A DNA stretch of 61,672 bases, the filler included, from Dugesia japonica (Eukaryota): assembly GCA_001938525.1 (NCBI GenBank). It is 6 parts of 6 records of this genome, joined end to end, with 100 filler letters (N's around TTAATTAATTAA, not from the genome) between each part and the next. Parts side by side here need not be neighbours in the genome. Positions count along the whole stretch, not along the records: positions 8,983 to 22,437 come from MQRL01527767.1; 5 more parts are not named here. The stretch is one strand, 5' to 3'. The translations under genes were made by a program, and so were the position numbers. Below, in pieces: positions 69 to 53,699 of this stretch (positions within the stretch are counted from its first letter, which is position 1; every line of letters begins with the position of its first letter). Below the pieces are notes generated by a model, which was not told the origin of the DNA, searched no databases, and saw nothing but the letters and a program-made list of their open reading frames with translations.

Positions 69-149
69 TGGTAAGTACAGTGACCAAACATCCTATGACC
101 GTTTGTCTTTATGACCAACAGTCCGTATGACCATAAATCTATACACTGT

Positions 150-1110
150 CTAAACTACTCAAATGATTAATCCATTCCTGGAATTGTGACGTAATTGGTT
201 TCTTTGTCGTCATCATGAAATCTTCTACCGTACAAGTAATGTTTGAAATGCATACAGAAATAATAAACAGCCAATACCTCCTTTCGTGTAATGTAGTATG
301 CTTTTTCATGACTCTAGAATTCTAAATGTACTTCTTGTAATTTATTAAAACAACTCAAACTCATAACGTTAATTCTAGCTCCTTTATCTAATAAACATTC
401 GACTTTATTCCCTTGAATTGATAACGGAACACTTGGTCTACCTTGCAATTTATGATACGAAATATTTGTTTTCTGTTCTGCTTCAATTTTTCCAACCCAT
501 TCCACTTTTCTATCATTCACAAAGTTTTCTCTCTTTAAGAATCGGTATACTGTTTTCTGTATCTTTCCTGATATAATCCCACTTTTCGAGCCCCAGAGGA
601 TGATTACTCACTTCATTTATGAAGGGCTCCAACCAACTCCTCTACTGGTAGAGCCCTGCTTTTTGTGTACTGCCTTTCTAAATCACTTTGACATACTAAC
701 TCATATCCATCGCTTGTATTTACATCTTCATCTTCAACCATTTTTTCCTTAGTAAAATCTTTTTTTGTAAATAATCTTTTACTGAATTTTTTATATTTTT
801 AATATAAACTTGAATCTCTTCATTTCCACGCCTGTAGATAATCAAATTTTGAAAGTCTTTGATAACATCTTTCTCTTTCTCAAATGCAAAACGTAAATGA
901 GCCTGAAAACCTTCAATATTTTCCAACGTATTTACATATTCTTCCAACAATTCATCATCTAACAAACAAGCGACTAATCTCTCCTTTTGTTTCACATGGA
1001 TGATGTTTTTAGCTTCAAAATATAATTCGCAACGCTTGATGAATTGTTTAATATCATCTCATCTGCAGAAGATATTCGGCAATAACCTCTGTGTAATAGA
1101 ATCGGTATTT
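150..1110 (-). mobile_element. Decayed Ty3/Gypsy LTR retrotransposon gag + aspartic protease
   Basis: ORF 314-520 has GRPSVPLSIQGNKVECLLDKGARINVMS, a decayed retropepsin LLDTGA motif. A gag-like ORF (720-995) lies upstream on the same strand, after a PBS and LTR. Confidence 0.85.
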
Positions 1111-5875: not shown

Positions 5876-7151
5876 TATGGGCTGCATTACCGGTAAACGA
5901 TCAACCGGTGAACCTGTTTTACCGGCAAATTGTATTACCGAAAATACCTGGTAAATTCTGTAAATTTCTTTTCAAATGTTTGAATGAAATAACTTTTGAT
6001 ATTGGGATTTTTTGATAATTAAAAAATGTCGTAAAATCTGTTGCATATTACATATTTTATCATTTACTTATGTTAACGTACTAGAAGTAAAATTCAGTTT
6101 GCTTACATTCGGAAAGCTTATTAAATTTATATGAACAGTACAAAAAATCCCTTGATTTACATCAATAAAAATCTCATAGTAATCGCTGTTACCGTATAGC
6201 TAGAATTTTTCTATGCTATACAATAACGATATAATTAAAAAAAATCAATTCAAAAAAATTTCTTTATGGTAAAATATATTGTGGTGGTGTTCTTTTAAAT
6301 ATTGTTTTGTGTAGAATTTCATAATAATTTGATTAATTAGACTGTGGTAAGTATTTATTCTATTTTATTTAAAAATCAATATTTTACATAATTTGTACAT
6401 TTAAATTTGAAGTCATGGAGACTGAAAAAACAAAGAATGGGACTATATTATACTCGGAATGGAAAATATCATGCCAAATGTAGGCTACTAGATATGCTTG
6501 AACGATTTTATCAATTAAAATCATGTGCTAGAAAGATTTAAATATTAATATTTCTTTTTCAGAAAATGAAATTAATTCTATTAATTCGGTAAAATCTACG
6601 TTGCTACCTGTAAAATTAGTTGCAGAAGCTTTAAGTACAGCTGATTGCACCTTATTGAATGCTGATATCGTCATAAAATTTATGCTTGATGAATTGCCTA
6701 CACAGAATAGTACTCTAACCAGAGAATTGAAATATGAATTACTTTTACGTATCCAAGACCTTTTCCGATGTTATGCAGATTCTACATAATCCTCTTAACT
6801 TGAAGGATATCCATCAATAAGACAATTATAATTTATTCATATTAAAAAAATAAGTGTTTTCTTTTAGTTTTATTAAATTGATGTATTTTTCATTTCATTA
6901 TCGAATTAATTTATTTTGGTTTCATTATTGAATTGTTATAATTATGTTTTATTCTTTTCTAGATAAATGAATTAAAATTTTATGATTTAGACTAAATATT
7001 ATAAAATTGTTGTTAGTTAGTTCTTCGTACATTGTTGTCCGCCCGCCATCAATAATATGTTATACATGATTTTTTTATTTAAAAACTGGTTAACCAGATT
7101 TTACTCAAATATTTACCGTAAAGCCGAAATTCAGTAATTTTGTAGCCCCAA
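5876..7151 (+). mobile_element. Internally deleted hAT transposon
   Basis: Termini TGGGCTGCA...TGTAGCCC with approximate 8-bp TSD ATACCAGC/TTGCCAGC. Transposase remnants LLDMLERFYQLKSC and LLPVKLVAEALS...TLLNAD at 6480-6790. Confidence 0.7.
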
Positions 7152-8882: not shown

Positions 8883-8982
8883 NNNNNNNNNNNNNNNNNN
8901 NNNNNNNNNNNNNNNNNNNNNNNNNNTTAATTAATTAANNNNNNNNNNNNNNNNNNNNNNNNNNNNNNNNNNNNNNNNNNNN
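8883..8982. other. Artificial scaffold linker
   Basis: N44-TTAATTAATTAA-N44, with stops in all six frames. Confidence 0.97.
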
Positions 8983-10408
8983 TAAAAACAAAATGTTTTG
9001 AATTGATACCAGCAACTAAAACAAAAATAACATTAACAGAAAAAAGAAATATTTTAGCAAATTCAGATAATTATAAAATTACAAAACTTATGATTAAAAA
9101 CGTTTCAAGAAAAATTTTTTTTTCCGACGAAGAAAAAGAAATAGATCGAGCATTAAATTTCAAATAAAATGTTATCAAAATGTTAGCAAAATAATTGCAA
9201 CTTCTTCAAAGTTTTTCTTGATGAAGTGGATGATTTCATTGAGATAATTAAGCAAGACAAATTTTGGAAATTTTACAAAAATTGAAATTTTGGAAATTTT
9301 CGATTTTACGGGTCTGCGTGGAATTTTTTGATTTTTGGAAATTTTCGCGNNNNNNNNNNNNNNNNNNNNNNNNNNNNNNNNNNNNNNNNNNNNNNNNNNC
9401 CACAATTTATACAAAACGAAATTCACGAGTATAACTTAGAATTTTGGAAAAACCATTATTTACACCACTCTCGTATTCAAGAAAATAATTTAGAAATGTG
9501 GAATTGTCCTATAGATTGTTGGTGTAACATTCATAACCAAGGTTGTATATTTTGCAATCATGCTTGTGAAATTTGTAATGATGGTGAAGTAATATTTTCA
9601 AATCCTATAACAGAAGGTGGATAANATCAAATTAATCATNTAAAAAAATGGTGATAGAAAATNAAAAATCAACATGTGAAAATGCTGTTGAATATATAAA
9701 CTGTGCAGCTAACTTTGATTCTAATTTATTTGAAAAATCCCAAAAGATTTGTTTAGCTGCAAAATATCAAGATTTTTGTTTTAAAAATCCAAATTTAAAA
9801 GATTCGTCTATAGCAAAAGAAATGGGAATAACAATTCATACACTTAATAAAAATTTACGAGAATTAAATTTAAAACCAGAAAGAAAAAAATACCACAGAT
9901 TAAAATATTCTTTTAATCAAAAATCTAAGTAATATGAAAAAGATCAATATGGTAATTATTTTCTCAATGTAAAAACAAAATGTTTTGAATTGATACCAGC
10001 AACTAAAACAAAAATAACATTAACAGAAAAAAGAAATATTTTAATAAATTCAGATAATTATAAAATTACAAAACTTATAATTAAAAACGTTTCAAGAAAA
10101 AATTTTTTTTCCGACGAATAAAAAGAAATAGATCGAGCATTAAATTTCAAATAAAATGTTAGCAAAATAATTGCAACTTCTTCAAATATTTTTTTGATGA
10201 AGTGGAGGATTTCATTGAGATAATTAAGCAAGACAAATTTCGGAAATTTTACAAAAATTGAAATTTTGGAAATTTTCGATTTTACGGGTCTGCGTGGGAT
10301 TTTTCGATTTTTGGAAATTTTCGCGATTTTAAGGGTAAATTTTAAAGGTTGCCTGATGGGTACCCCCTTGGCTTATAATCGCGGTTACCCTATTATATAT
10401 ACATATAT
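8983..10408 (+). mobile_element. End of an unclassified element with a Cys/His-rich ORF and an HTH ORF; internal direct duplication
   Basis: 8983-9349 is repeated at about 9971-10325. The ORF ending at 9624 has CPIDCWCNIHNQGCIFCNHACEIC. ORF 9648-9932 has HTH-like DSSIAKEMGITIHTLNKNLREL and appears to continue by frameshift to about 10153. The GC-richer end ...CGCGGTTACCC abuts a TA-rich run. Confidence 0.45.
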
Positions 10409-11059
10409 ATAAAGAAATAATAAATTATACAAAAACATATTAGCACCATTGGCATCAGTATAAAAAGTTACCTATACATTTAAAATCTATTTTCTTAAGC
10501 ACCAAACCCCACCCTTTGTCGAAGAAGCAAAATAGAAATTTGGTTTTCACATTTAGATAGAAAATTAAAATGTAAGATCCATACAAACTTTATGAAAATG
10601 ACTCTTTCCTTTTCACAATAGCTGCTAAAGATACATATTGATTTTATAAGTCAAANTTCATTTAAAATCATATTTTCTGGTTAAACTTGATATTTTTGGA
10701 TGCACAATAAGATGATGAACACAATGGCGTTGTTTAAATGTTATTTATATGTAATGGTATCATTTCTTAATTAAAATTTATCAAACTTGATATCATTAAA
10801 ATACTAATATGACAAATACATATACCATGTTTTCAAATCAGTTTGACGAATAGTTAGCAAAACATTATTCATTTAAATTTTAAACATGAATAAAAAATGA
10901 ATAAATTATCTATTTACAAATTGTAAATAGATAAAATGTAGTTAAAAATTATTATGAAAATTTTAAAAATGCATTTATATTGCATTCGTATTGCACGTGT
11001 ACTATTTCATAAAAATTAACACCCACGCAGACACATACAGACACATATACAAGTAGTTT

Positions 11060-11670: not shown

Positions 11671-12875
11671 TGAAAATGCGCTGGAATGGATAAATAAGAA
11701 TTTAAATAAAATAAATTAAGTAATATTGTAATAAGCCAGAATAAATATATGAAATAAAAATTGAAATTATATACAAAATAATAACAGAATTTATATATTA
11801 AATTTTAAAGTAAAAGAATAATAAATGAGTAAATTACAATGTTAGTAAAGAATGCTGGAATTATGTAATTAGTATTGAAATAGATTAATAAATGAGAAAT
11901 GATAGAAAGAGGAATGAATGTGTTAACGGTAAACATGTAAAGATATACAGATTGTAATGAGCATTATAGTGTCGAAGTGTAAGACGGAAGGGGAAACCGA
12001 TTAATATTAAATTAAATTAAATACAATGATGTAGAAATAATTTTAAAAAAATATTACCTTGAAAAACAGCGAGGTTGGCGCCCACTAAATGAATAATGAA
12101 AATGAACAACTATTTATACCTTCGGAAATCGGCTATTAATAAATCAAGTCGACATGAGTAAACAAAAGATCTCATTTCAGAATCGTTATCAAATAAGGGA
12201 AATATCAAAATAAGAAATAATTAAATTTAAATTAACTTAGTAAACATCAAAGTTCTCGGTATGTTTACATGGAGCAAACAATTGCGAAAAATACCCAAAT
12301 AAACTTAAAATATTTTTATTATTAAAAAGTGGTAATTAAGAAAAATAGTAATTAAAAATTTTAAANNNNNNNNNNNNNNNNNNNNNNNNNNNNNNNNNAT
12401 CAAATTGTAGTTTTAATAGGGATTATGCATAAAAATGCAAATAAAAATATAAAATAACAAAATGTTAGGATACATATATAGTAGCGAGAAAGAAGCGAAG
12501 AACATCTCTAACAGAAAAAATTTAAGTTGTTTGAGTATTCTATTGCTTTTGGATACTCAATGGTTTTCAAAGTATTCCAGACACTTTCAACACAACCATA
12601 ATATTTTACCTGAAAAACATCATATTGCATTGAAAACATTAGGAACAGGCTACATTTCTACACTTCACAGAAAGAAAACATGAACAAATATTAATTAAGC
12701 AGGATAAACCTAAGATCAATATAGTTTTTAATAATTAAAATAATAAAAATTTTTAAAAAATTAATATCAATATCAATAAAGTAAATTTTGAAAAATTCAT
12801 TAAAAAACGAAATAATATTGATAAAACTTAAGTAGAACAATTTTTGTAAGAAAGCTTTACTTTATTTAAAGTTTG

Positions 12876-13152
12876 TCATTCGTCCAAGTCTATGATTTTC
12901 TTGTTTTTCTCATTTATGGTCTCCTTTTCGATCTTGGATATCTGAGTCAGAGTTTGCACCGTTGATATTAACACTCCTTCTTGATCTGCATAGGCTTTAT
13001 TGATGTCTGCCATCATGCGACATTCTCTCTAAGGAGTACATTCTTTCTTTGTAATTCGGTGATCTCATTCTGCAGCTTTTTGTGTATGGAGCTCCACTTT
13101 TTCTTGATATCCTCTACAGAGGTATCCACAGTTTTCTTTCTGGCATTAGACA
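12876..13152 (-). pseudogene. Coiled-coil cassette ORF, block A (start by A|TG splicing; one frameshift)
   Basis: Acceptor ttacag|TG TCT AAT gives (M)SNARKKTVDTSVEDIKKKWSSIHKKLQNEITELQRKNVLLRE-fs-RMMADINKAYADQEGVL...IIDLDE*. AATAAA follows at 12861-12866. Confidence 0.6.
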
Positions 13153-13457
13153 CTGTAATTAATTAGAGATATTATATTATTTTATGATCATGTTTTTAAT
13201 GTTAACACAATTTATAATCTGCTTCATACTAAGTTTATAATAAGAGATCTGCAAGTTTGTAAATGTCAGGCATCAGATACGGAATTTGTGTTATTTGATT
13301 AACGAGTTGATCTTTCATAATAATTTTGAACNNNNNNNNNNNNNNNNNATAAAAATATACATTGATAATACTCATTAATGTTGTCCATTTTTATTTACGA
13401 ATGAGAATAAAGAAAGGCTAAAGAATAAAATTATATTGAGATTTAATAAACAATCAC

Positions 13458-14093
13458 ACAGCTGTCTCTTTAATATCACCCGTCTCATCCAATGGCGTCA
13501 GCAATTTCTGTAAAATCGTCTCCACCTTGACGGACAATCTCTTGGATAGCTTTGCATACTCTTCGGGTTCCACTTGAATTGATCGCATCATTTGGATAAC
13601 AATTCTTTAGTGCCATTCATTTCTTCAGCTTGGATATTTGTAAATCTTTTTGTTGGAGACGACCTTGCACTATCCACCACGGATCTGAATCTGTTCCTTC
13701 GGATCCGAGTGAGTACCATAAAACTGGCATGCTGTTCGGTAGCCGGTAGTGAATGACCAGCCTGTCCTGGACAATGATTTCGCTGCTTCTGCTTGTATAA
13801 TTCATCGAGTCATCTAGATGAATATGACTAATGCCTCATGATTACAAAAGTAATTATGTCGAAAATCTTAAAGAAATAATACTCGAGGGATACTCTCTCA
13901 TCATAAACAAGGCATATATCATTCGTCAATATGGATGGAGTGGGATCTTCTTTTTTTATCATATTGTTTATTGCCATTTCGAACGTCATAATTCCGAGTA
14001 TTACTTCATATTGATGAACCATTCTTCATGTATATCATACTGCTTAAAGAACCATCTTCTTTTAGATGACGAATAGTCCTCCGGTTTTGAGTA
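13458..14093 (-). pseudogene. Decayed cassette ORF of unknown function, block A
   Basis: GC-richer coding-like tract behind acceptor gttacag| at 14094-14096. It includes ORF pieces 13828-14022 and 13617-13805 and ends ...LDETGDIKETAV*. Confidence 0.45.
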
Positions 14094-14838
14094 CTGTAAC
14101 ACTAAATTAATGAAATTATGTTTAGCAATTTATCTTTATTGAATCATTTTCAATAAATATAAAATTATGTTTATAATCAATTATCTATTAACCAATTAAT
14201 AATAGACATTCTATAACAATGTTATCATCAACAATAATATAATAATCAAAAATAAAATGAATAGATAGTCAAAATTCAAATTAATATTTTTATAACAAAT
14301 CACAATCATTTCATAAACATATTATTACAGTAGTGAGCAATACACGTAAGGATTCAACCACTATATCCCCGCAATTCTCAATCACCCTATCAACGATAAA
14401 ATAACAATTCATCTTTCCTTCTCACAAATTTTCATAATCATCGTAACAACTATGACATCTCGTCTGAATATCTTTAGTAATTTACATTAGTATACATCTA
14501 TCAACATTTCTTTCCGTATCAGTAAACATCTATCAACATCTCTTTCAGTTACCATCTAACAGTATCTCTTTCAATATCAGTCACATCCCTTTCGCGATTA
14601 TCACTTAACATCGTAATCATTAATTTCCGTATCATAATCGTAATCATTAAGATCATTTAATACCTCGTAATCATTATTCAATATCTCGTAATCATGGTGG
14701 ATGAGCTCGTGAAATCAAATCTCTGATCTGCAATGATCATCACTGCCAGCAGATCTAATTAATGAGGATCATCACCCCAGTTATCCATGTTTTATAACTG
14801 TAATATTAATTTAAAAATGTAAATCAACAAAATTTTAC

Positions 14839-14968
14839 TTTTCCTTTCTGAGCTGTTTTTCGTAAGTTTATAAGTGACAATAGCTACTTCTACTTTTAAC
14901 AATAAGTAAAGAAAAACAAAAATTTTAAAATTTTGAAGTTAAAATTGAGATTTTCATTGGCTTTTATA
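14839..14968 (-). promoter_or_regulatory. TATA box and leader exon ending in A at a GT donor
   Basis: TATAAAA at 14962-14968; no ATG downstream of the Inr-like TCAATTT at 14942-14948; donor GGAAAA|GTAAAA at 14839/14838; nearest acceptor ttacag| at 14798 gives a 41-nt intron. Confidence 0.6.
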
Positions 14969-17049
14969 CCCAACTGTTTCGTCAAATTTTGATAGATACA
15001 ATGGGAGGCCACTTCAAATTTTTAGAACTCACTGAATCGTGCGGAGCTCACTTCCAGATTCGTTAATGATGACTATATTTGGTCATTTATATTTATTCGT
15101 TTTCTTTTCTTTTCTTCTTTTTCACTCTTTGCACACAATTTTTACTTCACATATGATGTACCGGTGCTCACTCGGCATCATAGATTTTTTTTTAATTTTA
15201 GATTTTAAATGTAAAGTGCGGTGCTCACCCGAAACAGATTTCTAGAGAAAACTTCTTGTTGTAACTTGCACGGTTTCAAAGAAATTGGTGTTCATTGAAC
15301 CGGCACGAATCGCTGAAAAAATAATAATATTTATCGTGAAATAATAATATTTTTGAAAATTTGTTTTCAATGTATAAATACGGATAATTACACGAATAAT
15401 TATAAATAATTTCCTAATTTAACTTTTTTATTATCTTTCTTCTTATGTAACTACGATCTCTAAATTCGAATTCTTTCTTTATAAATAATATTTATACTAT
15501 AATAATAAAATTAATAATATTTATCACAAAATAATAATAATATTACATTCTAATTATTTTAATACGTTATTATAATAATATGATTTTCCTAACTACATTA
15601 TATTACTTTTGTTAACTTTTTTAAATTATAATAACAATAATAATTTATTTCATATTTCTTTTCTAGTAATTCTTCTGAATTTTATTGAAATCTTTTAATA
15701 TAATGTTTTTGTTTTAATTCTACTTTATTATTTTATAATATTTTAATCATTAATTCATTATATTTCTACTTCTATATCATTCATATAAATTATAAATAAT
15801 GATATATGTTCTTGTTCCACTTATTTGATTACTTTCCATTTATTATTTCAATTATTTAATTGAGCTTTTAAAATTTTTTATTGTTATTTCTTTGAGCATT
15901 ATTATTTATTCGTTTTCCTCGTTTATTATTTATTTTAGTGATCAATTCTCCTTGAATTTATTTAATTCTGTTTATAATAATTAATTCTGTATTTTCTTGA
16001 TATTAAACTTTGCTTTGGTGCTTGAGCCTCTTTTATTATCCATAATTCGGATGATTTTATTGGATTCCTTGTCTTTAATTTTTTTTGTCTATGACCATTT
16101 TGTTTTATTCGGATTTATTACTTCTTTTTAAAATATGTTAATCATTTTTCATTTTCTAATTTCAGTTTCGACATGTTGATTTATTTAATAACATTTATTT
16201 CATTATTCACTGATTAATTCATCAATAATGTTTATATTTATTCTGCATCATTTCTTTTTGATTTCGATTTAACATCATTTCTAATGCATTTTTGAGTTCT
16301 TTATCTCTAATTCTTTTCTCAGTTTACTCAAAATTGTCTCTTTCCGTTAACTGGGCTGTTTCAACTCAACAAAATGAATAAAACATTAATTATATATGTA
16401 GAAAATATATTTTAAAAATTAATAAAAAACAAAAAAAAAATTTTCAAAAAAAAATTTAAAATATTTTATAATTTTTTTATCTAAACTCTTATTGTGCTGC
16501 GCTGTTTTTTTTATGTTTTTTCTATATTTCTCTGTGTTTCGATATTTTTTTCAAAAGTTCCCATGTATTTTCAATAGGTTTTTTTAGATTTCGTTGAAAC
16601 AATGTATAGTTACCTTTTTTATGCTGATTCTAATGGTGCTAGTATATTTTTGTAAAAATTATATATATAAATATATAATCATTATATTATCATTATATTG
16701 GTTCGGTGTGTCAAACCCTATATCTCGAGAACAATAATATAATATAATATGATGTAATAAAAAAGTCCTAACTAAAAACACAAGGATTTAGTTGATCCTC
16801 TTACGTAAGGAAGGGAGGGGGAGGTGTTGCATGGCCCTACTATCCCTCTACAATAATAATAAGTTGATAGATACTGGCGCATCGGAATAAAGACATTTTC
16901 TCGCCCTACCCCCGTTGCCAAATGCTTTGCTAAAATAGATTGCGATTTATTTAATACTATAATTTCTTNNNNNNNNNNNNNNNNNNNNNNNNNNNNNTTG
17001 TCCCTGAAAATATTTAATAGATAATCCGATTGTGCACAGCATAGCGCTA

Positions 17050-19408
17050 AATGTTTATTTTACGATTCTTTCGCTTCTGCAACCATTAGATTATAACCTA
17101 TTAATCTGAGGGGGTAACATTATTGGGATAGGTTTTAGTCTTTCGTTTTCCGTATCCAATTCTTCGTAGTTGCTTTTCAGTTTCTCGTATTCATCTTTCA
17201 ATTCTTTTTCTTTGAAAACTGATTGTTATTTTTAAGTTTCTCATTTTCGTTTATCAGATGCTTATTATTATTTTCCAAATTCTGAATTGCTATCTGACTT
17301 TCTTCGTACGATTCTTCCCATTGTTTACCCTCGATCTCATAGCTTCCTTTATCTCGAATTTCTCGTTGCATTCTTTCGAAATGTACTCGTTGGGCCTGGC
17401 TTCTGGCTTAATTGTTACTTTCGATTGTTGCTTCCAACATCTTGACTTTCTTTTGATTCCACTTTATCTCTGTCCTTTGCTCATCCAATAAGTGTTTAAT
17501 CTTTTAAGTTCTCGCCTCAATAGCGGTTTCGATTCCTTTAATTCACTTTCTTTTTTTAAACATTGACTATTACAATACTGCGCTCTTTCTTTAAATTCGA
17601 TAACCGTATTTTTATGAATTTCTTCTGTTTGCTGTTGGGTTGACTGGGTTTCGACAAATTGATTCTTTAGTCTTATGATTTGATTTTCGTAATATAGTCT
17701 AGATGCCATTCTGAAATATGTAAATGTCAATTTTAGCAAAATAAGGGTTTAATCGATTCATTAGATAATATTTCTGAGCTGGGCTATCATTATCTCTGTT
17801 TGGATATTCAAGCTAGTTTATATGGGTATTTACATTTTTACTTGGATTAACATTTTATATGTAATAATTTAAATATAAGCGATTGTCTCTTCGATTTCAC
17901 TTTACTTTGCATCTCTCATTTACTCGGATTCTTTTTCCATACCACATTCATGTCATACTAGTCAATTTTTTATAATAATTGTGATCCGTTTACATCATTT
18001 GCTCTACATTACACTCTACTATTACATTTTGAGTTTAAGCTATTTACACAATTTTCTCTTTTTTTGTTACCACACATATATGCCGGCCCTTCTCTCAGAG
18101 GTGAATGTAAATATTTGTTCGTTAATTCTAACAACTCATTCCGAATTTTCGGCCTCGCGTATTTTCCTTCCCTTGCTTTAATACGCACAATTATCGTTAT
18201 TATTAGTACCATTGTAGCCTCTATTCCACCGACTCCTTCAATGAGCTTTTTTGAGCATTCTTCGTCCATTTCTGATATTGTCGTTACCGTTGTTATATCT
18301 TCTAATTGCTTTAACTCATCTTGTTTGGTTTTTGACTCGTTGACCCTTCCCATCTTTTCCATCAATTTTTCGAAAATATTATTTTCTTCTAGATTCAGCA
18401 CTCTTGACTGAACNNNNNNNNNNNNNNNNNNNNNNNNNNNNNNNNNNNNNNNNNNNNNNNNNNTATTTCTTTTTTGTTGGTCATACTGATTTCTGTGATG
18501 TTTTTTGCACAACTCATTTTCTTTGTTTTTGATTTTGTCGTCTCTCGACGTTGTATCACTTTTGATTTGCTTGTTGTCTTTGTTGTCGTTTTCGGTGTAC
18601 TTGTTGTTTACTTTGTTGTAATTCTTGATTTTGTAACTCGTTTCGTTGTTTTATCTGGTGGTAGCTCCCACACTAGCATATATTCCACTTCGAACTATAT
18701 TCCATACCTCAAATGTATTTCGCGTTTTAATTCTTGTTGATTGTGGTCCCATTTATATTCTAGTAATAAGTCCTCGTTTGTCTAATCTTTAAGTGATAAG
18801 TAATGTCCGATTTGCATGTTTTGTTTTCCTTCTCGCTACACTGATAAGTTTACTAACTTTCCGGCCCCATTCATCGGAATTCTGTGCATACTTCGCTTAT
18901 TGTAAGGTATCTCACTTCGTTTTGCTTCAAACCTGCGCCTTTTTTTGATCCAGAGCACTTCACTTACTCTTTCAGATGTAAATCTTCATAGGTGTGATAT
19001 ATACAATGCTATATTTCTTAGCACAATATCTCTATTTACAAAATGTGAAAATAATTTCTACAGTATATACTAAAGATTCTTCGGACCTCAAACATTCCTG
19101 AATCTTTGTAGTAACTTGACATCCAAGTTTCCTCTTGGTATTGATCGCCATATATTCCTTCGTATTTATCACCATATATTCCTTCGTATTGTACTAATCG
19201 CATTTCCTGTGGCTTTTCTCCTGTTACCACTTTTCAATTACCAAGATTCTCTGAATAGTTTTAAAGTTATTGAGTGTCGCATTACTTGTATGCCAGGTTG
19301 TACCCATGTAAAAATAGCTCCATACTCTGTTTCCGTGTAATGACCTCCTTTTTTCATAGCGCGTCTCAATCCTTTTCTTGTTATTATCTGTATTCTTACC
19401 TCGAATCT

Positions 19409-19448
<40 letters not shown>

Positions 19449-20300
19449 GATGTTCTGTATGTACATCTTCATAATCGTAGCATTCTTGCCCATCTAATGC
19501 TCTTATCATTATCACGATTATTATCATATATATTCACATATTTCCTGAACTTAACATTTGACTCGCTTCTCTGTGCGTTTCCATTTCGATTTCTCTTCGT
19601 CTATCAGCTTTTTCTCCTTTTAAGGCGACCGTTATCAAAATTAGTGAAACGTTTATTGATATTATTATTGCCGTTTGCCAGTATTATTGTCCAGTACCTC
19701 TTATTTTCATACTTGCTTTGATTTATTATTATTGTCGGACTCGTTGTCCGCGTACTTTCGCCTCGTATAACCTCCATCATCATTAAAGCCAAAAAATATG
19801 TATAACCATGTATCAATAGTTTTGACCGATTTCTTTCGCTATGCTTGTTGCTGTTATGGTCTCGTTTATTTCATATAATTTCGTTGTCTGATTTTCGATC
19901 TTTGTGGGCCATACCATTACCATTATTGTTATTATACACAGTGAATATTATTATTGGTATCGGAGCGATACATGTGTACGCAGATTTCTCCCATCACCTC
20001 CCGAGTGACGGTTTTTTAATAGTTTCACTGCTTCGTTTTTCTTTTCGTAGATTTGGTTCGCTGTGTTTGGTTTCATTTTCTCGTAAATTCTACCATCGTC
20101 TTTTATCACTGGTATTTCTGGTAGCAGAACATTTTGTCTAATTTCATCATCTGCTCCTTTTTCCTCAAGCTTTTCGCGTTCTTTTTTGATTTCTTGTTGT
20201 TTCAAAATTCAATATTTTTCTGTATGTCGTAATTTTTGGTAGATTCTCCACCACTGTCGCGACACACCTTCAGGATGGTAAAAATGGCAAAAAAAACCAT
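17050..20300 (-). pseudogene. Long decayed minus-strand coding tract, family unrecognised
   Basis: Chain of K/E-rich minus-strand ORF pieces (19951-20205, 19036-19230, 18009-18512, 17464-17739) broken by stops and a (TA)n run. No diagnostic motif found. Confidence 0.35.
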
Positions 20301-20639
20301 TTCAACAAAACTTTCTGCAAATAATTTAAAAACAAGAAAAATTTCAAATAAAAAATAATTCTTTGTTTTATTTTTGATATTGTGCAAAAATGAAACAAAT
20401 TTCGATAGTTGTTCTTTAGGTAATGTATAGATACTTTTTTATTGTTTATATTATAATACAAGCTTTTACATAAAACAAATTTAAAATAGCTGCTGTAAAC
20501 TGTTTTTATTGTTTAACTAAAAACTGACTAGCACTATTGAAATTTAAACAAGCTAATATGTCCGCCATCAAATTCCACGTCCAACGGTATCTAGTTAGAT
20601 ACCATAGCACTTTCCGATAACGCATCAAGGTTCAGATGG

Positions 20640-20925
20640 CTCAGTGCGTCACTATCTTGACTAAAGGTTGTTGTAAATGGATTTTGATAACGAATTTTAT
20701 TGTACACAATTGGTTTCGATAATTTTGATAAAATTGCGACACCAACATTGACAAATAATAAAATGCTAGTGTATCAAAGACAAACATTAGAGTAGCACCC
20801 AATGTTATCCACCTAGATTTGATGTATGAGTATTGAAAATTAGGGTTTATTTACTGGAATATCATTTGGAAGTTTATTTAGAACATAAACACCTAGCCGT
20901 GCTAATCCAAGACACTTTGATGCAA
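20640..20925 (-). pseudogene. Polinton adenain-type cysteine protease remnant
   Basis: LGVYVLNKLP...FNTHTSNLGG*HWVLL...RYQNPFTTTFSQ, the decayed NT..S..PG.HW and Q......CG motifs. It lies directly downstream of a major capsid gene. Confidence 0.7.
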
Positions 20926-20989
20926 TCCAATAAATCTGAATAGAACTAATTAATTAAATAATAAATAATATAATAATTCTTAATTTATT

Positions 20990-22437
20990 ACAATTTTTTC
21001 AAGAATACACAACATTGTGTACACTAATAGTGTACTGTTGGCTTTTTTCTGAATTTTTTTTTCAAATACTCCATAAATTATAACATATGCCGATAATGTT
21101 AAAGCTTTGGCAAACTTGATATACAATCTCAAATTTCCTTGTTGAGGTAATTGACTGTGATTTATATCAAAATCTGGAGAAAGAATAAATGTAAAGAAGG
21201 GATAATTGTCCTTAAAATCTTGAAGTGTTATTCCGCAATTCATATACTTATCCAAATATCGCATTTTTTTACTATAGATTGCATATATGTTGAAGTATAG
21301 TTATCGTTTAAAAAAATCTTGAGTATATATTTCTCGATAATCAATGTTTTTCGTCAAGGAAACATAAACAGTATCTAAATTTTGAAATGTTGGACTCGAG
21401 CTTGTATAACTACTATTATATTGTTCTCCACTTTGAAATGTAACTAGAATAAATTAGGTGATCGACGATCACCAAAGATTTGTTCCTTATAAAACAATGA
21501 ACTATATTTACTAATTGCAAATGCAATGACTTCCTTGGTACTTATCGGATAAATAGCATTTTGCTTTTTAGTCCCAAGTGATGAGCAGCTAATACTGAGG
21601 GCTCAATTTGTACATGTCTAACTAATAATATTGTATCTAGTAAAACATATTTAGGTTCATTGGCTGCAGATTCCAAACAAATCTTCGAAGATGCTCTTTT
21701 CAATCGAATATGAACACTGACACCTGGAATAAGGTATTTCGATAATTCATGAAATTAAATAGCAATGAACCGCATAGAGACAATTGTTTTGATGTTTCAA
21801 TAGACTTTTATTTATCTGCATTTGTTCCATATCCCATTTATGTAAGACATATATTTTTACTATCACCATTATAATTTATTATAGTTTCAATTAATGCTTT
21901 GTGAAGATAAGATACATTTCCACTTATTAAACTTAATTATTAAACGAAAGAATTACATCCTTGAAAGGTGTATGCAACATATAATTACTAGGAATGATAT
22001 CATGAGTGTCTAGGCTTGCCAACTCTCCCGTTTTTTCCGGGATTCTCTCGGAACTAGATTTCATCTCCCATCTCGGCACTATCTTTGACTCGGGAGATAT
22101 AATTCTCTCGTCTTATGTTTTTGCAAAATTTATTTGTTCATATCCTTTTGGTATTAGTCATCATAACATTAAAATCACACACATCATCATCATGTATAAG
22201 TTGTGACAGTGTCAACAAAAAATGAAAACCAGTTTTTATATTTTTTAAGCGTTATAAATTATAATGCTTGCAATTTTATAATCTCCCGGGTTCGAGGTTG
22301 TAGGTAGTTCCATCCTTATCAACTACCTTCACTTTAATATGCAATGAAGTATCATTCAAATTCAAATATTCTGTTCGAGATCCATTTATAAAATACTCTA
22401 CATCGCTTTGCAATTCAGAAATTGAATTCATAGGAAA
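20990..22437 (-). pseudogene. Polinton/Maverick major capsid protein, copy 2 (decayed)
   Basis: N-terminal part FPMNSISELQSDVEYFINGSRTEYLNLNDT...SNYMLHTPFKDVILSFN aligns with the 35.4-35.8 kb copy. C-terminus GNLRLYIKFAKALTLSAYVIIYGVFE is typical of Polinton MCP. Confidence 0.85.
22010..22289. mobile_element. Small hAT-like insertion interrupting MCP copy 2
   Basis: Starts TAGGCTTGCCAACTCTCCCG. MCP homology stops and resumes on either side. Confidence 0.55.
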
Positions 22438-22537
22438 NNNNNNNNNNNNNNNNNNNNNNNNNNNNNNNNNNNNNNNNNNNNTTAATTAATTAANNNNNNN
22501 NNNNNNNNNNNNNNNNNNNNNNNNNNNNNNNNNNNNN
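22438..22537. other. Artificial scaffold linker
   Basis: N44-TTAATTAATTAA-N44. Confidence 0.97.
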
Positions 22538-34963: not shown

Positions 34964-35063
34964 NNNNNNNNNNNNNNNNNNNNNNNNNNNNNNNNNNNNN
35001 NNNNNNNTTAATTAATTAANNNNNNNNNNNNNNNNNNNNNNNNNNNNNNNNNNNNNNNNNNNN
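34964..35063. other. Artificial scaffold linker
   Basis: N44-TTAATTAATTAA-N44. Confidence 0.97.
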
Positions 35064-35179
35064 GAAAAAAAAACCATCCCAAAAATCATGTCACTAAAAA
35101 TCATGTCACCATCGTAATGTGTTTTCGAGCCCCCCCCAGTGCTATGTGAGTAGTGACAATGCGCTACTATCCCCCTACT
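35064..35179. mobile_element. Terminus of a further, probably Polinton-type element abutting the MCP gene
   Basis: Ends CCAGTGCT...ACTATCCCCCTACT, resembling the end at 42297-42319 (CCAGTGCTGCACTATCTACCTACT). The MCP reading frame runs right up to 35180. Confidence 0.55.
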
Positions 35180-35790
35180 TTTGCATCCTGTATTTCATAC
35201 TTGGGTTCATAAGCTGCTGATTCCAAACATAATTTTGCTGGAGCTCTCTTCATTCGAATATGTAAATTAACACCGGGAATAAGATATTTCAGTTTATCCG
35301 TAAAGTAGAGTTGCAATGATCCACATAGAGTCAATGATTTTGATAATTTATGCCACTTTTTTCTATCTGCTTACGATCCATACTCCATTGCACTTACACA
35401 TATATTCTTACTATCACCATTATAGTTCAGTACAGTTTCAATCGATGCTTTTTGAATATTTGTTCCGTTTTCCCTTTCAATCTTGATATTATTAAATGAT
35501 AGAATGATATCTTTGAACAATTTATGCAGCATATAGTTGGAAACCATTGCTCCTGAAGCTTCAACCAAAGCCTTGTTTGTCTTATCAACTACTCTTATTT
35601 GTACGTATAACATAGTATTATTCAAATCCAAATATTTAGTTTGGGATCCATTGATAAAAAACTCTATATTATTCCTGCTTTCGGAAAGAGAGTTCATAGG
35701 AAACACATCTTCAAATGCATCATATTCAATCACTGCTTGAGGAGATGAACGGTCAAAAATACGCAATGAATACGCAATAAAAACTTGATT
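35180..35790 (-). pseudogene. Polinton major capsid protein, N-terminal part
   Basis: PMNSLSESRNNIEFFINGSQTKYLDLNNTMLYVQIRV...NYMLHKLFKDI...IETVLNY...KYLIPGVNLHIRMKR. Confidence 0.88.
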
Positions 35791-36185
35791 TCTTGCGGTT
35801 TTTATGTCCAGCTGCTGATGTTGTGGTAACCGATTCCACTTTTGGTTGATTTTTTAGAAGACTAGGTAATTTACTTGATATACTTGACGGCAACATGTTT
35901 GCAACCTTTGAAAACATACTGGTCATACCGGATGGTAATGAAAAAACTGCATTACCGAGCTCAGCCATTGCATTCTTTTTCAAAGTCGCCAATATCTTTC
36001 AATTATTAGCCAGTACATCCTGAGCAGTTTTCATAACAAATGAGCCAATACGCTTATGAATAAGACTTGTAAATCTCTCGATTGTTCGCAACCAACCAGA
36101 TCCTATATTGTTTACTTATAAAATATGGCAATTCCCCACCAGCTTAACTGCTGCTATACAACGAAACAATATCCGGATTAGTCAT
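35770..36185 (-). pseudogene. Polinton small amphipathic (membrane-active/core-like) protein
   Basis: MTNPDIVSLYSSS*AGGELPYFISKQY-fs-GSGWLRTIERFTSLIHKRIG... has QxGG/QxGxG adenain-site-like motifs and sits between the minor and major capsid genes. Confidence 0.7.
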
Positions 36186-37171
36186 TTGGTTTTCAAAAAT
36201 GTAAAGTTAAATGTGTGTTTGAATGTTTTGGAAACTTTATTAATTTTCCGTTATCATCGCGTATATTAATTTTATACTGTTTATACATGATGTTGCAATA
36301 GGTAAATACATTGAATTCTCAACTATTATTTGCACTACTTCATCAATTTTATGTTTGTCTATCCATATTGATTTCAACAAAGGTACACTAACATCACCAA
36401 CAATTATAGCTTCAACAAGAATACTATAGATGAACATTTGCTGATGTAACTTCATTATTTTTAATTTGGTAATAGCTATGAACTCACTTCCGTTCATATC
36501 TGTAGGAGAATATAATTGTTTGTCTATTACCAATGTTCTTGTTAAGACATTATAAAATACAACTTTTTAACATCATATTGTAGATCGAATTCAAAATATT
36601 TATCTGCATTTAAAAGACATTTCTTAAATATTTGAGTACAATTTTCTGATAAATATTTACTTAATCGTTCTAATTCTAATATGTATATAACATCTTTAAA
36701 CTGGAAAGTATGATAATTTACCTTTGCATAAGCTACTTTTACTTTTACTGTTTGTATTGTGTCATCATTTGCAAAGTTTGTTAATTTGTTAGATTTAAAT
36801 CCTAATCCAAATGAGTGTGCAATATTTGCATCTTCACAATAAAAAGTCACAATAAAATCACAATAAAATCTTATGAGATTCTTTTCAAATATTTCAATAT
36901 TTGCATTTTCATCAACATTGATCGCTTTTTCCTTGTTATTTATTGCTACAGTTATTTCATTCAATATATTTTTTGCGGTCAAGTATTCAATTTTCGACTT
37001 GCTTTATAATAGAAACGGAGAATACAGAAAGGTGAAATTCATCAATGCAACTTACCAAGCACCATTCAGGTAAATTGCATTTTGAAGTTCAACAATGAAT
37101 TTACTGGCTGTATTATCGGGATGAACACGTCAACTACTATTGCTTGGCAAAAGCATATAGAAATCATTCAT
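36178..37171 (-). pseudogene. Polinton minor capsid (penton)
   Basis: MNDFYMLLPSNSS*RVHPDNTASKFIVEL...W*VAL; MFIYSILVEAIIVGDVSVPLLK; C-terminal IRDDNGKLIKF...THLTLHF. Confidence 0.88.
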
Positions 37172-38169
37172 ATTAAATGTGATGCAGATATCTAATTTGG
37201 TCTTTCATATCTAACCCACTTGATATATAATTCTTTATTAACTTTTCGTTTCGTCTTGAGTACTTTTTCTCTATATATCTCTGGTCGTGGAATGACGTGT
37301 AACTTGTGCTCATAGAATTTACCCTGATCTTTGTTCATGATCTTTAATTACATACATGACGGGATTCTGTTTTAAATTGATATTTTCTATTTGAAACACT
37401 TCATCGCTCCAATTAGTATCGAAATTCTTGATGAAGGGGAAAGCTGATATCTTTGATATTCTAACATGGTTACCAACTTTATATTTCGGATTTTTGACTA
37501 CTTTCTTATCTTGTTTGCTTAACCATAACTTTAGTTGATTGTTTGATTTGACACCAAATGGTCTTGTTTCTTTCAAATCTTTATGACTAGAATTATTATA
37601 ACTATGAATTTATTTCGACAAAAAATTTATTCAGGTTTTCTTTCCAGTATGCACAAAGTATTTTTTCAAAGCATCTCTTAATGTTCGATTAAAACTCTCT
37701 ACAGTGCAGCCTTGTACTGTGAATGTACTGTATAATGGTTTATTTTTAAATGTGCTAATAGATTTTTAACTTTTGAATTATAAAATTCCTTACCCAAATC
37801 AGTTTGTATATTATCTTGAGACCCAGTCTTCAACATTGTTTTGATTGCAGTTTCCAAGCCGGTGGCAGATTTAGGTTTTACTGTAATTACACGTGCAAAT
37901 CTGCAAAATACATCAATACACGTCAAAATATACTTGTATTCCTTATTAATTTTCGAATACGGAATCATCTCCATCAAATTCATTTGCCATAAATTGTTAA
38001 TACCATATGTCTTATAGGCTCTCGTTGGGAATCCTCTCAACATTGGCTTGTTCAGACTGTATACCAGCTGATTTGCCAACCACTTTTGTGTCTTATTTTT
38101 CGATTTTTGAGCTTCTTTCATTAATTTTTTTATTCCTCAAAACCCCTGTTCGCTTTTGGGTTTGTCCAT
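37170..38169 (-). pseudogene. Polinton retroviral-like integrase with C-terminal chromodomain-like tail
   Basis: LWQMNL (first catalytic D decayed to N), YILTCIDVFCRFA, IQTDLGKEFYN, RFNRTLR, PKYKVGNHVRIS, NWSDEVFQI and LYIKWVRY. Confidence 0.92.
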
Positions 38170-38269
38170 ATCGTCCACAGTTTTCCCATTGCAACATTTT
38201 GATGATAATTTAAAATCAATGTTCGACAAAGATTGTAAACCACTCATTGTTTTTTTGAAAGGAGACGCT

Positions 38270-38572
38270 TCAAATGCTGCCTTTGCAATTGGTAATAGAG
38301 CTGCAATGAAACTACCATCTGGTTTATGGATAACCTTTCTCATCAGCCTTTTATTTTTGCTATTTACAAGACTCAATAGTGACTTTTTATGTTTTTTCAA
38401 TACTTCCTTTTTAGCTTTGCATACATTAACATTACCGTGAACAATATTTACAATGATTTCTAGCAAGTCATCAAAAACATATGTGGGAAATGACTGCAAA
38501 TCTTTTATTCTCAAGTGTTTTGATGATTTGAGCAATGCATTAAAAAACGGAAGACTATGTTGTAATTTCATA
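38270..38572 (-). CDS. Conserved small basic Polinton protein
   Basis: LLEIIVNIVHGNV...KEVLKKHKKSL...RKVIHKPDGSFIAALLPI matches the N++.GNV...QxGGF+..LLP pattern of Polinton core-like proteins. Confidence 0.7.
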
Positions 38573-38597
38573 TTTAAGTAAAATACATCTTGATTGT

Positions 38598-38828
38598 TTA
38601 TAATGATATCCACTTTCTCTTTACGCTTTTAAGCTTTTTTCCATACATTTTCTACAGTTTTTTGAATGTTATCAACTCATTTATCTTTAGAATTTTCTTT
38701 TCAATTTTTCTCTTTCCAATCTTACTCTTTACTACTGGTATATTTACTACTGGACGTTTGACAGTAGGCACTCGTTTTCTTTTAACGGTTTTTACCTGTA
38801 TAACTATAACTTTTTTAAATTTAGACAT
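38598..38828 (-). pseudogene. Short, very basic ORF after the ATPase (possibly an internally deleted Polinton gene)
   Basis: MSKFKKVIVIQVKTVKRKRVPTVKRP...KKL*KMYGKKLKSVKRKWISL*, with one internal stop. Confidence 0.45.
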
Positions 38829-38829
38829 T

Positions 38830-39469
38830 TATAAATAACATATTTACCTCGATTGTTTATATATTGTAACACCTTTAGAATTCCAAATATCTGTTCTAAC
38901 ACTCAATTTATCTGGACATTCTTTAGTGAAGTCGAGAAAAGAATATCCGTGCGCGTTTTTTGTTGCATCCTGAAATGATTCAATAAGATATTGTCTGTGT
39001 TTGAATATGTCTGTCTTTCTAAAAAATCAACAACTGTTTGATCCTTTGGGTTCTTCAATAGAACCAGGTATTGAACATTTAAGTTTTGCGTTCTGTGACT
39101 CCCACCACTATGAAATAGATTTTTGGTAATGAATATCATAGTCACGCCTATATATCTTGATATCTTTGTGAATAAATTATTAAAATCCTTTTCCTAGTTT
39201 GCTTCGTGGAACAAATCATCAATTATAATGACATCTCTCGGTTTCAATCTTTTGCTCCAATTATTATCGAATCCATTTTTAATTTTCATTTTGATATTGC
39301 AATATTCCAATTGAGTCGCTCTCTTCTCTTCATCAGCTCCTCTTTGCCAATATATTTTGTTGAATTTAGATTTGAACAAGTCTGATTTCAATAATTTGCA
39401 TACAAACAAATTTTTTCCACTGCCGCTAGGACCGAAAATTTGATAGGTTGCATCGCTTCTCGATTACAT
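38830..39469 (-). pseudogene. Polinton A32/FtsK-like packaging ATPase
   Basis: Walker A IFGPSGSGK, Walker B VIIIDDL, and IFITKNLF...RTQNLNVQYLVLLKNPKD. Confidence 0.92.
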
Positions 39470-40032: not shown

Positions 40033-40195
40033 TACCTACTAATTGAAATACAAATGCATGCACTGAACATGCTATAATGTTCTACAAATTTGAAATTATT
40101 TTATTAGTTAAACTATATTTGTTGGTGAGTGAGTTTGTGTGTATAAAATATGTAAATAAGCAGTTGCATATTCATTAATAATCAGTTTTTTTACA

Positions 40196-40690
40196 ATGTA
40201 AAAATAAAAAGAGAGCCAACATTAACCAATATTTTACCATTGGATCCAGTTGTCATTAAATCACTCAATCATGCTGATAAGATTATTATTTTTTTTTTTA
40301 ATTATTTTAATTATTTTTGTTTTCAGAAGAACAAATATTGATCAACATTAAGAAGGAGCCAACAATAAGACATGAAATGACACCAGAACTGTTGGATCAA
40401 TTCAGTAATCAAAGTAAATTTTTATTTTATTTATTAATATTTGTTTATTATTTTTTTTTATTTTAGATATTATGAAAGTAATATTCAATAAATTGATTCC
40501 GGGATTTGTCAAATCATCAAAATCCTGGTTGAAAGAGAAATATTTCAAAAAGGTTGAGGAAGAGACCTTCTTGGTTATTCACGAAATCATGTTGCAGTTA
40601 TAAAACTTGATCCAGTATACGTGCTATACTCCGAGTTTAAGTTGTAGATATCATGGGTACAAATTTGTGATTATATGTCATTTATTTTTT
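40196..40690 (+). pseudogene. Spliced Polinton accessory gene, unknown function
   Basis: TATAAAA at 40142, TCAGTT at 40180, ATG at 40196; acceptors at about 40326 and 40466. Peptides KIKREP... | EEQILINIKKEP... | IMKVIFNKLIPGF... Confidence 0.5.
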
Positions 40691-40879
40691 ATTAGAAATA
40701 AATTTTTATGTGTGCTTAATTTTTGTTTTGATATTTTAATTTAGTTTTTAGTATTTAATTTTTAAAAGGTTTAAGTTATTAACGGTAAAATAAAACAGTT
40801 TGTTTTATCTAAATAAAAAATGTATTATAAATAAGAACGAAAATAATATTAAATAAGAATATTTATTTGAAAAAAAAAT

Positions 40880-41415
40880 GTACAATAAAAAACCTTAACA
40901 CCAAGATTAATTGTCAATTTTGTAAATAATTAATTGCCAAATTGGTGTTGCTTGAAATCCATGCGTCTTGTATCCTTTGATTTCAACTTGCACTGGGCAT
41001 TTCATTGAATTTTTATTTGTTTCTTCAATTCTCACCAAAAATATTTTAACCCGTCATGCCATTTCTAGTTTCATTCAATTAAATAATATATTTAAAGTCT
41101 TCTGATCATTTTCACTGATATTTGACACCAACATACTGAATTCACAGTTTTGAATTCTAATCGGATCCTAAATAAATAGATAATTTATATTATAACAATA
41201 AACATTACTTGAAATGTATATGTCAATCTCTTCTTCAGGAAAAACATTTCCTTTCCATGGAAATTCTTTGGATTGTTGAAGCATTGTCTGCTGTAACTTT
41301 TCTATCCATCTTTTTTTGTAAAAATGAGAATCCACAAGCAAGCAGCTTTTTATATACTATTTCGAAATTGTGTGTGTATCCTTTATGGAATATAATTGGT
41401 TAGCATATAACCATT
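40880..41415 (-). pseudogene. Second spliced accessory gene near the Polinton terminus
   Basis: Coding-like tract with an intron of about 40 nt (41169-41208) and several stops. Confidence 0.35.
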
Positions 41416-41749
41416 ATTAACGTAATACAATGTGTGTATACATTCATCAATGAAAGTAATTGGCTTATATATCCATTGATAATGAAATGTTATGTGTGTT
41501 ACTTAATTTCCAGACATATGCAATAGTAATGCAACTAGATTGCGGAAAAAGGGTATAAAATTACCGACATATTGCAACTAGCCTGAAAATATTTTATGCC
41601 TCAAGTCTGCCGGCAGGGGATAATAATGTATCCAGTTTACCGGACAAGCCTTGACTCTACGGGGCGGATCTTAGGCTTTTAGCTTATGAAATTTTAGTCT
41701 GTCGGACCGCATTTGATTTATTAAAACATTATTTTCTTTATCAAAAAAA

Positions 41750-42319
41750 CTTGTAATAAATAAAACTTTACTTACAATAAAAGTTAAATTTATATTTAAA
41801 AAACTTTAAATAAAAAACTTTAATAAAAAAATTTACTTTAATAAAACTTAACTTTAAGTAAAAACCTTAATAAAAACTTTAAAAAAAAATATTATAAAAT
41901 AAACTTTACTTTAATTAAAATTTATAATTTTACTTTAATTTTTTACTAATAAAAAAATTAATTTAACCAAAATTAAAACAAACCAAATTTCAAAAATAGT
42001 ATTAAAAAACATATTTAAACCAAAATTAAAACAAACTAAATTTCAACATGCACTTCTATGTGTTTCCGCGAAGGGGGGTGAAAAATAAGGAAATAATTAC
42101 AAAAAATTAATTAAACCTAAATTAAAACAAACCAAATTTCAACATGCTCTTCAATGTGTTTCCGCGAAAGGAGGTTAGAAAAAAAATTTAATTAAAAAAT
42201 ACACACATACTCGATGTAGAAAAAAAATGCAATACACACATACTCACTCAATCTGATTGGACAATTTTACTAGGGGGGAGGGGGAAAGAAAAAAACCAGT
42301 GCTGCACTATCTACCTACT
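41750..42319. repeat. Polinton subterminal repeats and terminus
   Basis: AAAATTAAAACAAAC(C/T)AAATTTCAA three times and ATGTGTTTCCGCGAA twice; ends ...CTACCTACT. Confidence 0.7.
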
Positions 42320-43184: not shown

Positions 43185-43284
43185 NNNNNNNNNNNNNNNN
43201 NNNNNNNNNNNNNNNNNNNNNNNNNNNNTTAATTAATTAANNNNNNNNNNNNNNNNNNNNNNNNNNNNNNNNNNNNNNNNNNNN
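43185..43284. other. Artificial scaffold linker
   Basis: N44-TTAATTAATTAA-N44. Confidence 0.97.
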
Positions 43285-53125: not shown

Positions 53126-53225
53126 NNNNNNNNNNNNNNNNNNNNNNNNNNNNNNNNNNNNNNNNNNNNTTAATTAATTAANNNNNNNNNNNNNNNNNNN
53201 NNNNNNNNNNNNNNNNNNNNNNNNN
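53126..53225. other. Artificial scaffold linker
   Basis: N44-TTAATTAATTAA-N44. Confidence 0.97.
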
Positions 53226-53699
53226 ACAGTTTCAGAACATTTTTAATATTATTTAGCAGTAATGATTTCATTAAATTAAAAGCTTCGATTAAAAATTAAA
53301 ATCCAAACTCTTGGATTATGTTAGAGTTTCGATTTTTTTATTATATTTTGTATAATTAAAGATTAATGATTTTGATAATACAAGTCATTTTGAAATTTGA
53401 ACATGCTGATATTAGTCACATATAAGGGTTTTGTCCTGGGGTTTGAGCTTTCTACATTATTATTAAAATTATTATCTTGTACTTATGGCCCTCCATAAGC
53501 ATAGAGGAGCAAACATATTCCTGTGAAATACCACTGATCATATTTGACGACAAAAAACTTGGTAATGGTTCAAAATGTGATTTTTTGGGAAGCAACTCGT
53601 ATATTTTTTGAAATAAACGTTTTATAAAGAAGTAATTAAAGTCGAGCTTTAAATCAAAAACGCTGGCCAAAAAAATATATCCTCAACTCAGGTGCAACA

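Follow-up and report, generated by a model that had tools for sequence, protein, structure and literature searches.

Two blocks on the minus strand of the window, by which we mean the whole 61,672-nt stretch of Dugesia japonica DNA analysed here, each consist of one TATA-type promoter, one leader ending in A and a series of acceptor-led cassettes. Judged from their sequence, it is probable that in both Block A and Block B one leader is spliced to alternative acceptors and contributes the first base of an A|TG start codon. Under this scheme, the single TATA promoter would give rise to a pre-mRNA whose first exon is short, non-coding and terminated by an A, and the sole donor of this exon would be joined to one of several acceptors, each lying ahead of an unrelated small ORF. 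The first ORF would use its own ATG just inside the exon, and the later ORFs, which begin with TG, would be translatable only once the A of the leader had been joined to them. The choice of acceptor would select the protein and at the same time create its start codon, and RNA that is unspliced or spliced upstream would offer no start at that codon for the TG-led ORFs. The transcription, splicing and translation proposed here are predicted from motifs and frames that are present in the DNA and that are repeated in a second, intact unit of non-homologous sequence. For Block A, we lean somewhat towards the fuller statement that it represents a decayed multi-gene expression unit of a mobile element, probably an LTR element of the Ty3/gypsy type.

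Block A lies in AT-rich surroundings (GC mostly 0.20-0.34) with assembly gaps and many transposon remnants. Its TATA box is preceded by a GC-richer segment of 344 nt (14969-15312, minus strand) that opens at an acceptor-like TTTCAG (15313) and holds three copies of the motif GTGAGC(A/T)CCG (15042-15053, 15162-15173 and 15219-15230). These are candidate upstream promoter elements, their enrichment being partly circular since the pattern was derived from the same three sites. The TATA box itself, TATAAAAG (14961-14968, minus strand, with TATAAAA at 14968-14962), is followed by a predicted leader exon of 105 nt with a terminal A (14839-14943, from an inferred cap site), and then by the donor GTAAAA and a first intron of 41 nt in all, which extends up to the acceptor TTACAG (14798-14838). 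The first-pass annotation had located the TATAAAA, the terminal A with the GT donor from 14838, and three TTACAG acceptors ending at 14798, 14094 and 13153, and each of these is present at its place. Its description of the leader as ATG-less holds for 14839-14943 and assumes a cap site downstream of a single ATG at 14957, 11 nt past the start of the TATA box. Two further observations were made on the minus strand around the block, namely an A-rich, decayed, coiled-coil-like stretch at 15900-16400, between the LTR-like segment described below and the Block A promoter, which may be a further cassette, and a separate unit at 12050-12125, represented by a TATA, a short leader and an AAG|GTAATA donor.

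The three cassettes of Block A are GC-richer than the spacers between them (0.33-0.39 versus 0.15-0.22), as had been claimed. Cassette A1 (14310-14797), encoding acidic repeats, has its own ATG after 9 nt (14788), again in agreement with the earlier claim; it is heavily broken, and a codon model was positive for none of its frames over the first 120 nt. Cassette A3 (12876-13152) opens with TG directly after the TTACAG at 13153, and its coiled-coil-like TG frame stays open for 45 codons without a Met before it is broken. The A|TG start had been assigned to this third cassette; the second cassette fits A|TG as well, which had been overlooked. Cassette A2 (13454-14101) is preceded by a further acceptor, the TTTAG at 14102, which lies 8 nt before the one at 14094 and is followed by an in-frame TG and 32 open codons, the cassette being broken by stops and frameshifts; joining the TTACAG at 14094 to the leader gives A|TA. 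An AATAAA lying 10 nt past the last stop of the block (12861-12866, minus strand) is a candidate poly(A) signal. The starting frames contain 15 stops in 159 codons (A1), 13 in 215 (A2) and 5 in 91 (A3), which bears out the view of this copy as decayed. Being so badly decayed, Block A is weak evidence when taken alone, and its features then lie within chance. The minus strand of the window contains TATAAAA at 41 places and TTACAG at 19, and shuffling gives P=0.14 for a 105-nt leader free of ATG; for three acceptors to include one AG|TG, P=0.19. It goes beyond chance through the site at 14102 and through its replicate, Block B. The earlier proposal, in which a single promoter and non-coding leader serve alternative 3' acceptors and splicing completes an A|TG start, is thus partly supported by sequence, most strongly by Block B.

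Block B (56.9-60.5 kb, minus strand) lies about 44 kb from Block A in window coordinates and repeats its plan, with TATAAAAG, an ATG-free leader ending A|GTAAAA, acceptor-led ORFs and a terminal AATAAA. Its promoter and leader (60237-60494) comprise the TATAAAAG box at 60494, a leader of 233 nt without an ATG (P=0.010), an in-phase TAA, the terminal A and the donor GTAAAA. All four of its ORFs are intact. B1 (58535-58720, 60 aa) and B2 (57939-58375, 142 aa) have their own ATG, at +4 and +9 respectively; B3 (57425-57792) opens with TCTAG|TG followed by 121 codons, of which codon 23 is the first internal Met, and B4 (56915-57297) opens with TTTAG|TG followed by 126 codons without a Met, with an AATAAA 13 nt past its stop. 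The ORFs are separated by AT-rich spacers, and each reaches its own stop at a GC-to-AT step. An acceptor-like TTACAG at 60824 lies 330 nt upstream of the TATA, such an acceptor-like step being common to both blocks at 330-345 nt. The octamer type TATAAAAG occurs eight times in the window, and among its 74 TATA-like sites an ATG-free path to AAA|GTAAAA is found in two, those of Blocks A and B, with B as the sole independent hit because the donor motif was defined on A. No similarity was detectable between the cassettes of A and those of B, in DNA or protein, and there is therefore no ground for placing the two blocks in one family.

The spacing of donors and acceptors counts against the scheme in both blocks. 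The first intron of Block A is just 41 nt long, and the donor of Block B is separated from its first acceptor by 1.5 kb, with an Asn-rich plus-strand frame between them. This decayed frame (58830-59700) lies antisense to Block B, inside the intron predicted to be its first. It may derive from a gag linker or a LINE ORF1-type fragment, or may have been inserted later; it gave no Pfam family match, and a solved-structure search with another frame of the same plus-strand region returned nothing.

The in-phase TAA that directly precedes the terminal A of the Block B leader indicates that this leader is non-coding, so that A|TG must be a start if it is spliced. This observation bears on an alternative raised in the first-pass annotation, in which the leader of Block A is a short coding first exon common to several terminal exons and A|TG encodes an internal Met. 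Block A itself would allow it, as the in-phase frame of its leader has no stop over 33 codons and includes five near-cognate start codons, one of them 8 codons before the donor. However, a coding first exon leaves the TG opening of unrelated cassettes unexplained and is excluded for Block B by the in-phase stop, and we consider it unlikely for Block A.

Across both blocks, YAG|TG opens the long frame in four of the seven cassettes (A2, A3, B3 and B4), and in the other three an ATG lies no more than 10 nt into the cassette. Of the 2314 YAG sites in the window, 158 are followed by TG, which gives a binomial P=6e-4 for four of seven, for acceptors chosen by hand. Stretches that remain open for at least 90 codons number 48, and three of them have an in-frame YAG|TG within the first 35 codons: B3, B4 and a third that lacks a GC step. 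The probability of an in-frame YAG|TG within 20 codons, calculated locally, was 0.007-0.022 in each case. The codon model, for which other remnants had supplied 2778 codons of training data, placed the TG frame at the top of the six frames in each of these four cassettes, at modest scores (1.3-4.7 bits). An unselected test of every YAG at an AT-to-GC step, from which site 14102 was narrowly excluded by the GC threshold, found TG at 3 of 11 sites inside the blocks versus 5 of 63 elsewhere, a difference that is not significant (Fisher p=0.09). Rival acceptors that would give no ATG lie 30 nt upstream at B3 and 8 nt downstream at A2. The outcome of the unselected test, together with the frequency of the single motifs, the heavily broken state of Block A and the homologues not found for the cassettes, would be compatible with chance, that is, with unrelated decayed transposon fragments in AT-rich DNA whose motifs were picked after the fact. 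Against this explanation, which appears quite unlikely to us, stand the four intact same-strand ORFs of Block B with their matching promoter, leader and donor, the agreement of the codon model in every TG-led cassette, and the low local probabilities of YAG|TG.

The GC-rich islands and the spacers also resemble exons and introns, and the cassettes could be read as consecutive exons of one continuous ORF, belonging to a host gene or to an intron-containing transposase. A weak Pfam match of A3 to MADF (E=0.021, below the cut-off) is in line with such a gene, and decay in Block A could mask its donors. However, a continuous multi-exon ORF is made unlikely by Block B, where every ORF ends at its own stop and good phase-1 donors are absent near the ORF ends; the phase-1 GT sites in B3 agree with the U1 donor consensus at no more than 4 of 9 positions. 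Searches also found no match to a transposase or host gene, and this reading is improbable. Since AATAAA also follows A1, A2 and B1, a common 3' end for the cassettes is unsupported by sequence.

An acceptor ahead of each ORF would likewise be expected of an operon-like cluster processed by spliced-leader trans-splicing, in which the trans leader supplies the start. A flatworm-type spliced leader would end in AUG, and the 14094 site of A2 would suit such a leader, being in phase 0 and followed by 30 open codons. At A3, B3 and B4, in contrast, phase-0 joining opens only 12, 4 and 21 codons, compared with 45, 121 and 126 after TG, and both blocks have a local cis donor ending in A, which makes trans-splicing highly improbable.

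As regards the putative carrier, Block B is enclosed by a 4.5-kb segment (56613-61107) with inverted ends that match at 15 of 16 nt and extend imperfectly to about 38 nt, with TGTTG at the left. It is one of two pairs of inverted TG..CA-type ends in the window with at most one mismatch in 16 nt; the other near-perfect pair is at 40126-42250, 2.1 kb apart. The left end interrupts a transposase remnant, which on the basis of its motifs we take to be hAT-like and which had no Pfam match, and the remnant does not resume at the right. The flanks of the segment differ, with no target site duplication of 4-5 bp. These features would be compatible with a long solo LTR with a rearranged flank. Just outside the right inverted end (61300-61430, plus strand), several CCAAT-type boxes, a gap and a right-facing TATA were observed, possibly a divergent promoter or that of a neighbouring LTR.

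Around Block A, inverted ends were looked for and none were found. About 1.9 kb from it, a polypurine tract (16807-16824) is followed by an LTR-like TG..CA segment (16825-17119, with a 29-N gap; the whole feature spanning 16807-17119 on the plus strand), of which the window holds no second copy and at which, as in Block B, no target site duplication was found. TGTNR termini are present at the left end of the Block B segment (56613) and at 16825, the right end of B having one mismatch. A PBS-like motif at 12076, on the plus strand of the stretch 12050-12125 noted above, has no matching LTR. A partial match of the LTR-like segment at 8217 was dropped because it sits in another remnant, and an inverted match of 80% between 10404-10480 and 16601-16677 was attributed to a common repeat that occurs at both places.

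Upstream of Block A, decayed acceptor-led cassettes with their own ATG occupy 17120-20314 on the minus strand and comprise a long broken frame and a coiled-coil frame. The former (about 18010-20300) includes one hydrophobic segment (19-residue hydropathy 1.97) and, with its acceptor and early ATG, is a candidate env; the last open stretch of the latter (17120-17710) enters the LTR-like segment, and no family match was found for either frame. Block A could be placed in two ways: as an antisense unit upstream of the plus-strand polypurine tract, by analogy with the additional ORFs of plant elements, or as a sense unit that follows the decayed cassettes of its own strand at 17.1-20.3 kb, with the LTR-like piece inserted later. 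No Pfam match to gag, protease, RT, RNase H or integrase was obtained within Block A or Block B or in the cassettes upstream of A, which deletion or decay could explain, and no paired LTRs with a PBS tied to A or B were found in the window. No RT, integrase or gag was found tied to either block, and their assignment to Ty3/gypsy is accordingly tentative.

The splicing scheme may also be right with a carrier that is not an LTR element, for example a non-autonomous DNA transposon of the Ginger type or a segment of an endogenous DNA virus. The window contains two minus-strand remnants (20600-22480 and 35170-39460), presumably Maverick/adintovirus-like to judge from gene order and motifs, which are 73% alike over 344 nt and one of which carries an integrase. 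Such remnants near the blocks, with an integrase match at 37.7 kb, would suit a carrier of this kind, as would the imperfect inverted ends of B and their TGTTG start, since the terminal TGTNR pattern is common to Ginger and gypsy termini (PMC2836005). Ginger elements are DNA transposons with a gypsy-like integrase as transposase, terminal inverted repeats of 40-270 bp and CCGG/CCGT or RTATAY as target (PMC2836005). Block B, in contrast, has no transposase, its inverted ends are shorter and imperfect, and its left flank lacks these target motifs; in addition, a polypurine tract and an LTR-like segment lie near Block A. A non-LTR carrier is accordingly an unlikely option that we nevertheless keep in view. 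An Rfam scan of the window returned only a sub-threshold twister match (twister-P3 at 7067-7133, minus strand, 27.6 bits against 39.9, E=0.18), and neither the hammerhead ribozyme motifs nor the linked RT of Penelope-like elements with accessory ORFs (Terminons) were found.

Homology searches added little to the identity of the encoded proteins. No homologues were found for B2 or for A2 read through its stops. The one phmmer match (P0001), among 1.84 billion representatives, was rejected as a tandem-repeat artefact, in which 12 of 46 identities were repeated 15 times in a non-TG frame of the third cassette. None of eight window proteins was present as an exact sequence in the protein collection. 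Pfam gave only sub-threshold matches for the cassettes, mostly to coiled coils, and nothing useful for six read-through frames; the Atlas search gave no usable match for B2 or the upstream membrane-like frame, and the single-sequence fold of B2 had a pLDDT of 31.8. A gag-like control frame from the window also found no homologue, so that these blank searches show neither absence nor novelty. The control was taken from decayed frames at 142-1058 (minus strand), which we take to be the gag and protease of an LTR element. Elsewhere in the window, Pfam identified the integrase mentioned above, a mariner-type transposase (23.1 kb) and a weak RT (52.8 kb). Also present are a 361-nt tandem repeat in 2.3 copies (53692-54545) and a 367-nt direct repeat with 94% identity (8983-10325), possibly an assembly duplication. 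Five identical 100-nt blocks (8883-8982, 22438-22537, 34964-35063, 43185-43284 and 53126-53225), each made of 44 N, a 12-nt spacer with stops in all frames and 44 N, are scaffolding artefacts and not repeats.

The proteins of Blocks A and B, several of them coiled-coil-like, are inferred to have an accessory or regulatory role. A more general proposal, put forward as a tentative idea that may well not hold, is that such units are accessory mini-operons of invertebrate LTR-type elements in which several unrelated start-less ORFs borrow their first base from a common leader, the whole unit possibly being contained within a long LTR of about 4.5 kb. If true, the presence of two non-homologous elements in one 62-kb window would mean that the design is widespread or convergent and hidden from ATG-based annotation, since ORFs without an ATG in the DNA would be missed by both transposon and gene annotation. 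The splicing scheme itself, if correct, would mean that retrovirus-like regulation, with an internal promoter, a common leader and spliced accessory genes, extends to a mobile element of an invertebrate, and the lone known split start codon of the gypsy type would become a multi-gene switch in which translation is tied strictly to splice choice.

In foamy viruses, an internal promoter is tied to the expression of tas/bel. As far as the accessible text of the source goes, these viruses resemble A and B in having an internal TATA promoter in an upstream GC-richer segment and short spliced 3' genes, and Block A also has a broken membrane-protein-like frame upstream, which may or may not belong to the same element; the blocks differ in showing no retroviral homology, and a split start codon is not described for foamy viruses in that text (PMC7828637). 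Adenovirus late genes share a common non-coding leader and many acceptors, and in the available part of the description the major late unit is like A and B in that one promoter and leader serve alternative acceptors, each of which places a different ORF first (PMC7070027). In the same account, however, the adenovirus ORFs have their own AUG and the leader has three exons, whereas A and B measure 2-4 kb, are chromosomal and have no adenovirus homology (PMC7070027). The likeness to adenovirus late and complex-retrovirus transcription drawn in the first-pass annotation is apt only as an analogy, and no homology to any virus was found for the blocks.

Among LTR elements, the plant Ty3/gypsy elements Grande (gene23), RIRE2 and Retand carry, between pol and the 3' LTR, antisense orphan ORFs that have a promoter of their own, according to the portion of the source available (PMC7264820). 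This placement resembles that of Block A relative to the plus-strand polypurine tract and LTR-like segment, although no common leader or split codon is described there for the plant ORFs and pol is absent beside A (PMC7264820). The planarian giant gypsy elements Burro/GYPSM1 are described, in the accessible sections, as having accessory ORFs, LTRs of several kb, an internal region of up to 25 kb and a total above 30 kb (PMC6431247). The 4.5-kb segment around Block B is of the same size class as the Burro LTR, compared by description, but there most extra domains lie in one polyprotein, unlike the separate ORFs of A and B (PMC6431247). Extra ORFs are also on record in rotifer LTR elements (PMC5408684), and extra small ORFs, reported as unspliced, in the Drosophila MDG1 group (10.1101/2025.03.14.642691), again from partial texts. 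No closer case appeared in the available parts of PMC13524379 or PMC7828637. Within the literature covered, outside which most subscription papers and supplements lay, no element was found with a split A|UG start common to several ORFs.

The nearest parallel is offered by the errantiviruses of the Springer subclade in Drosophila, whose env is spliced to an AU dinucleotide that forms part of the start codon (10.1101/2023.08.03.551782); the leader of Springer itself is reported to lack an AUG (PMC13097621), both from the accessible portions of these sources. As described there, they are like A and B in being invertebrate LTR elements, if the blocks are indeed such, in which a start codon is partly supplied by a non-coding leader through splicing. 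However, the division reported for them is AU|G and concerns one ORF, env, whereas for A and B it is A|UG, predicted from DNA, and apparently serves two ORFs per unit beside ORFs with their own ATG. Unlike the springer errantiviruses, A and B showed no homology to env, gag or pol. By analogy, the two blocks probably act like a small adenovirus-late or complex-retrovirus unit in which the splice-built start of errantiviruses is applied to more than one gene. A splice-made AU|G was thus already known for the env of one errantivirus, and what would be new here, on the evidence of the DNA, is a split start codon that serves several unrelated ORFs.
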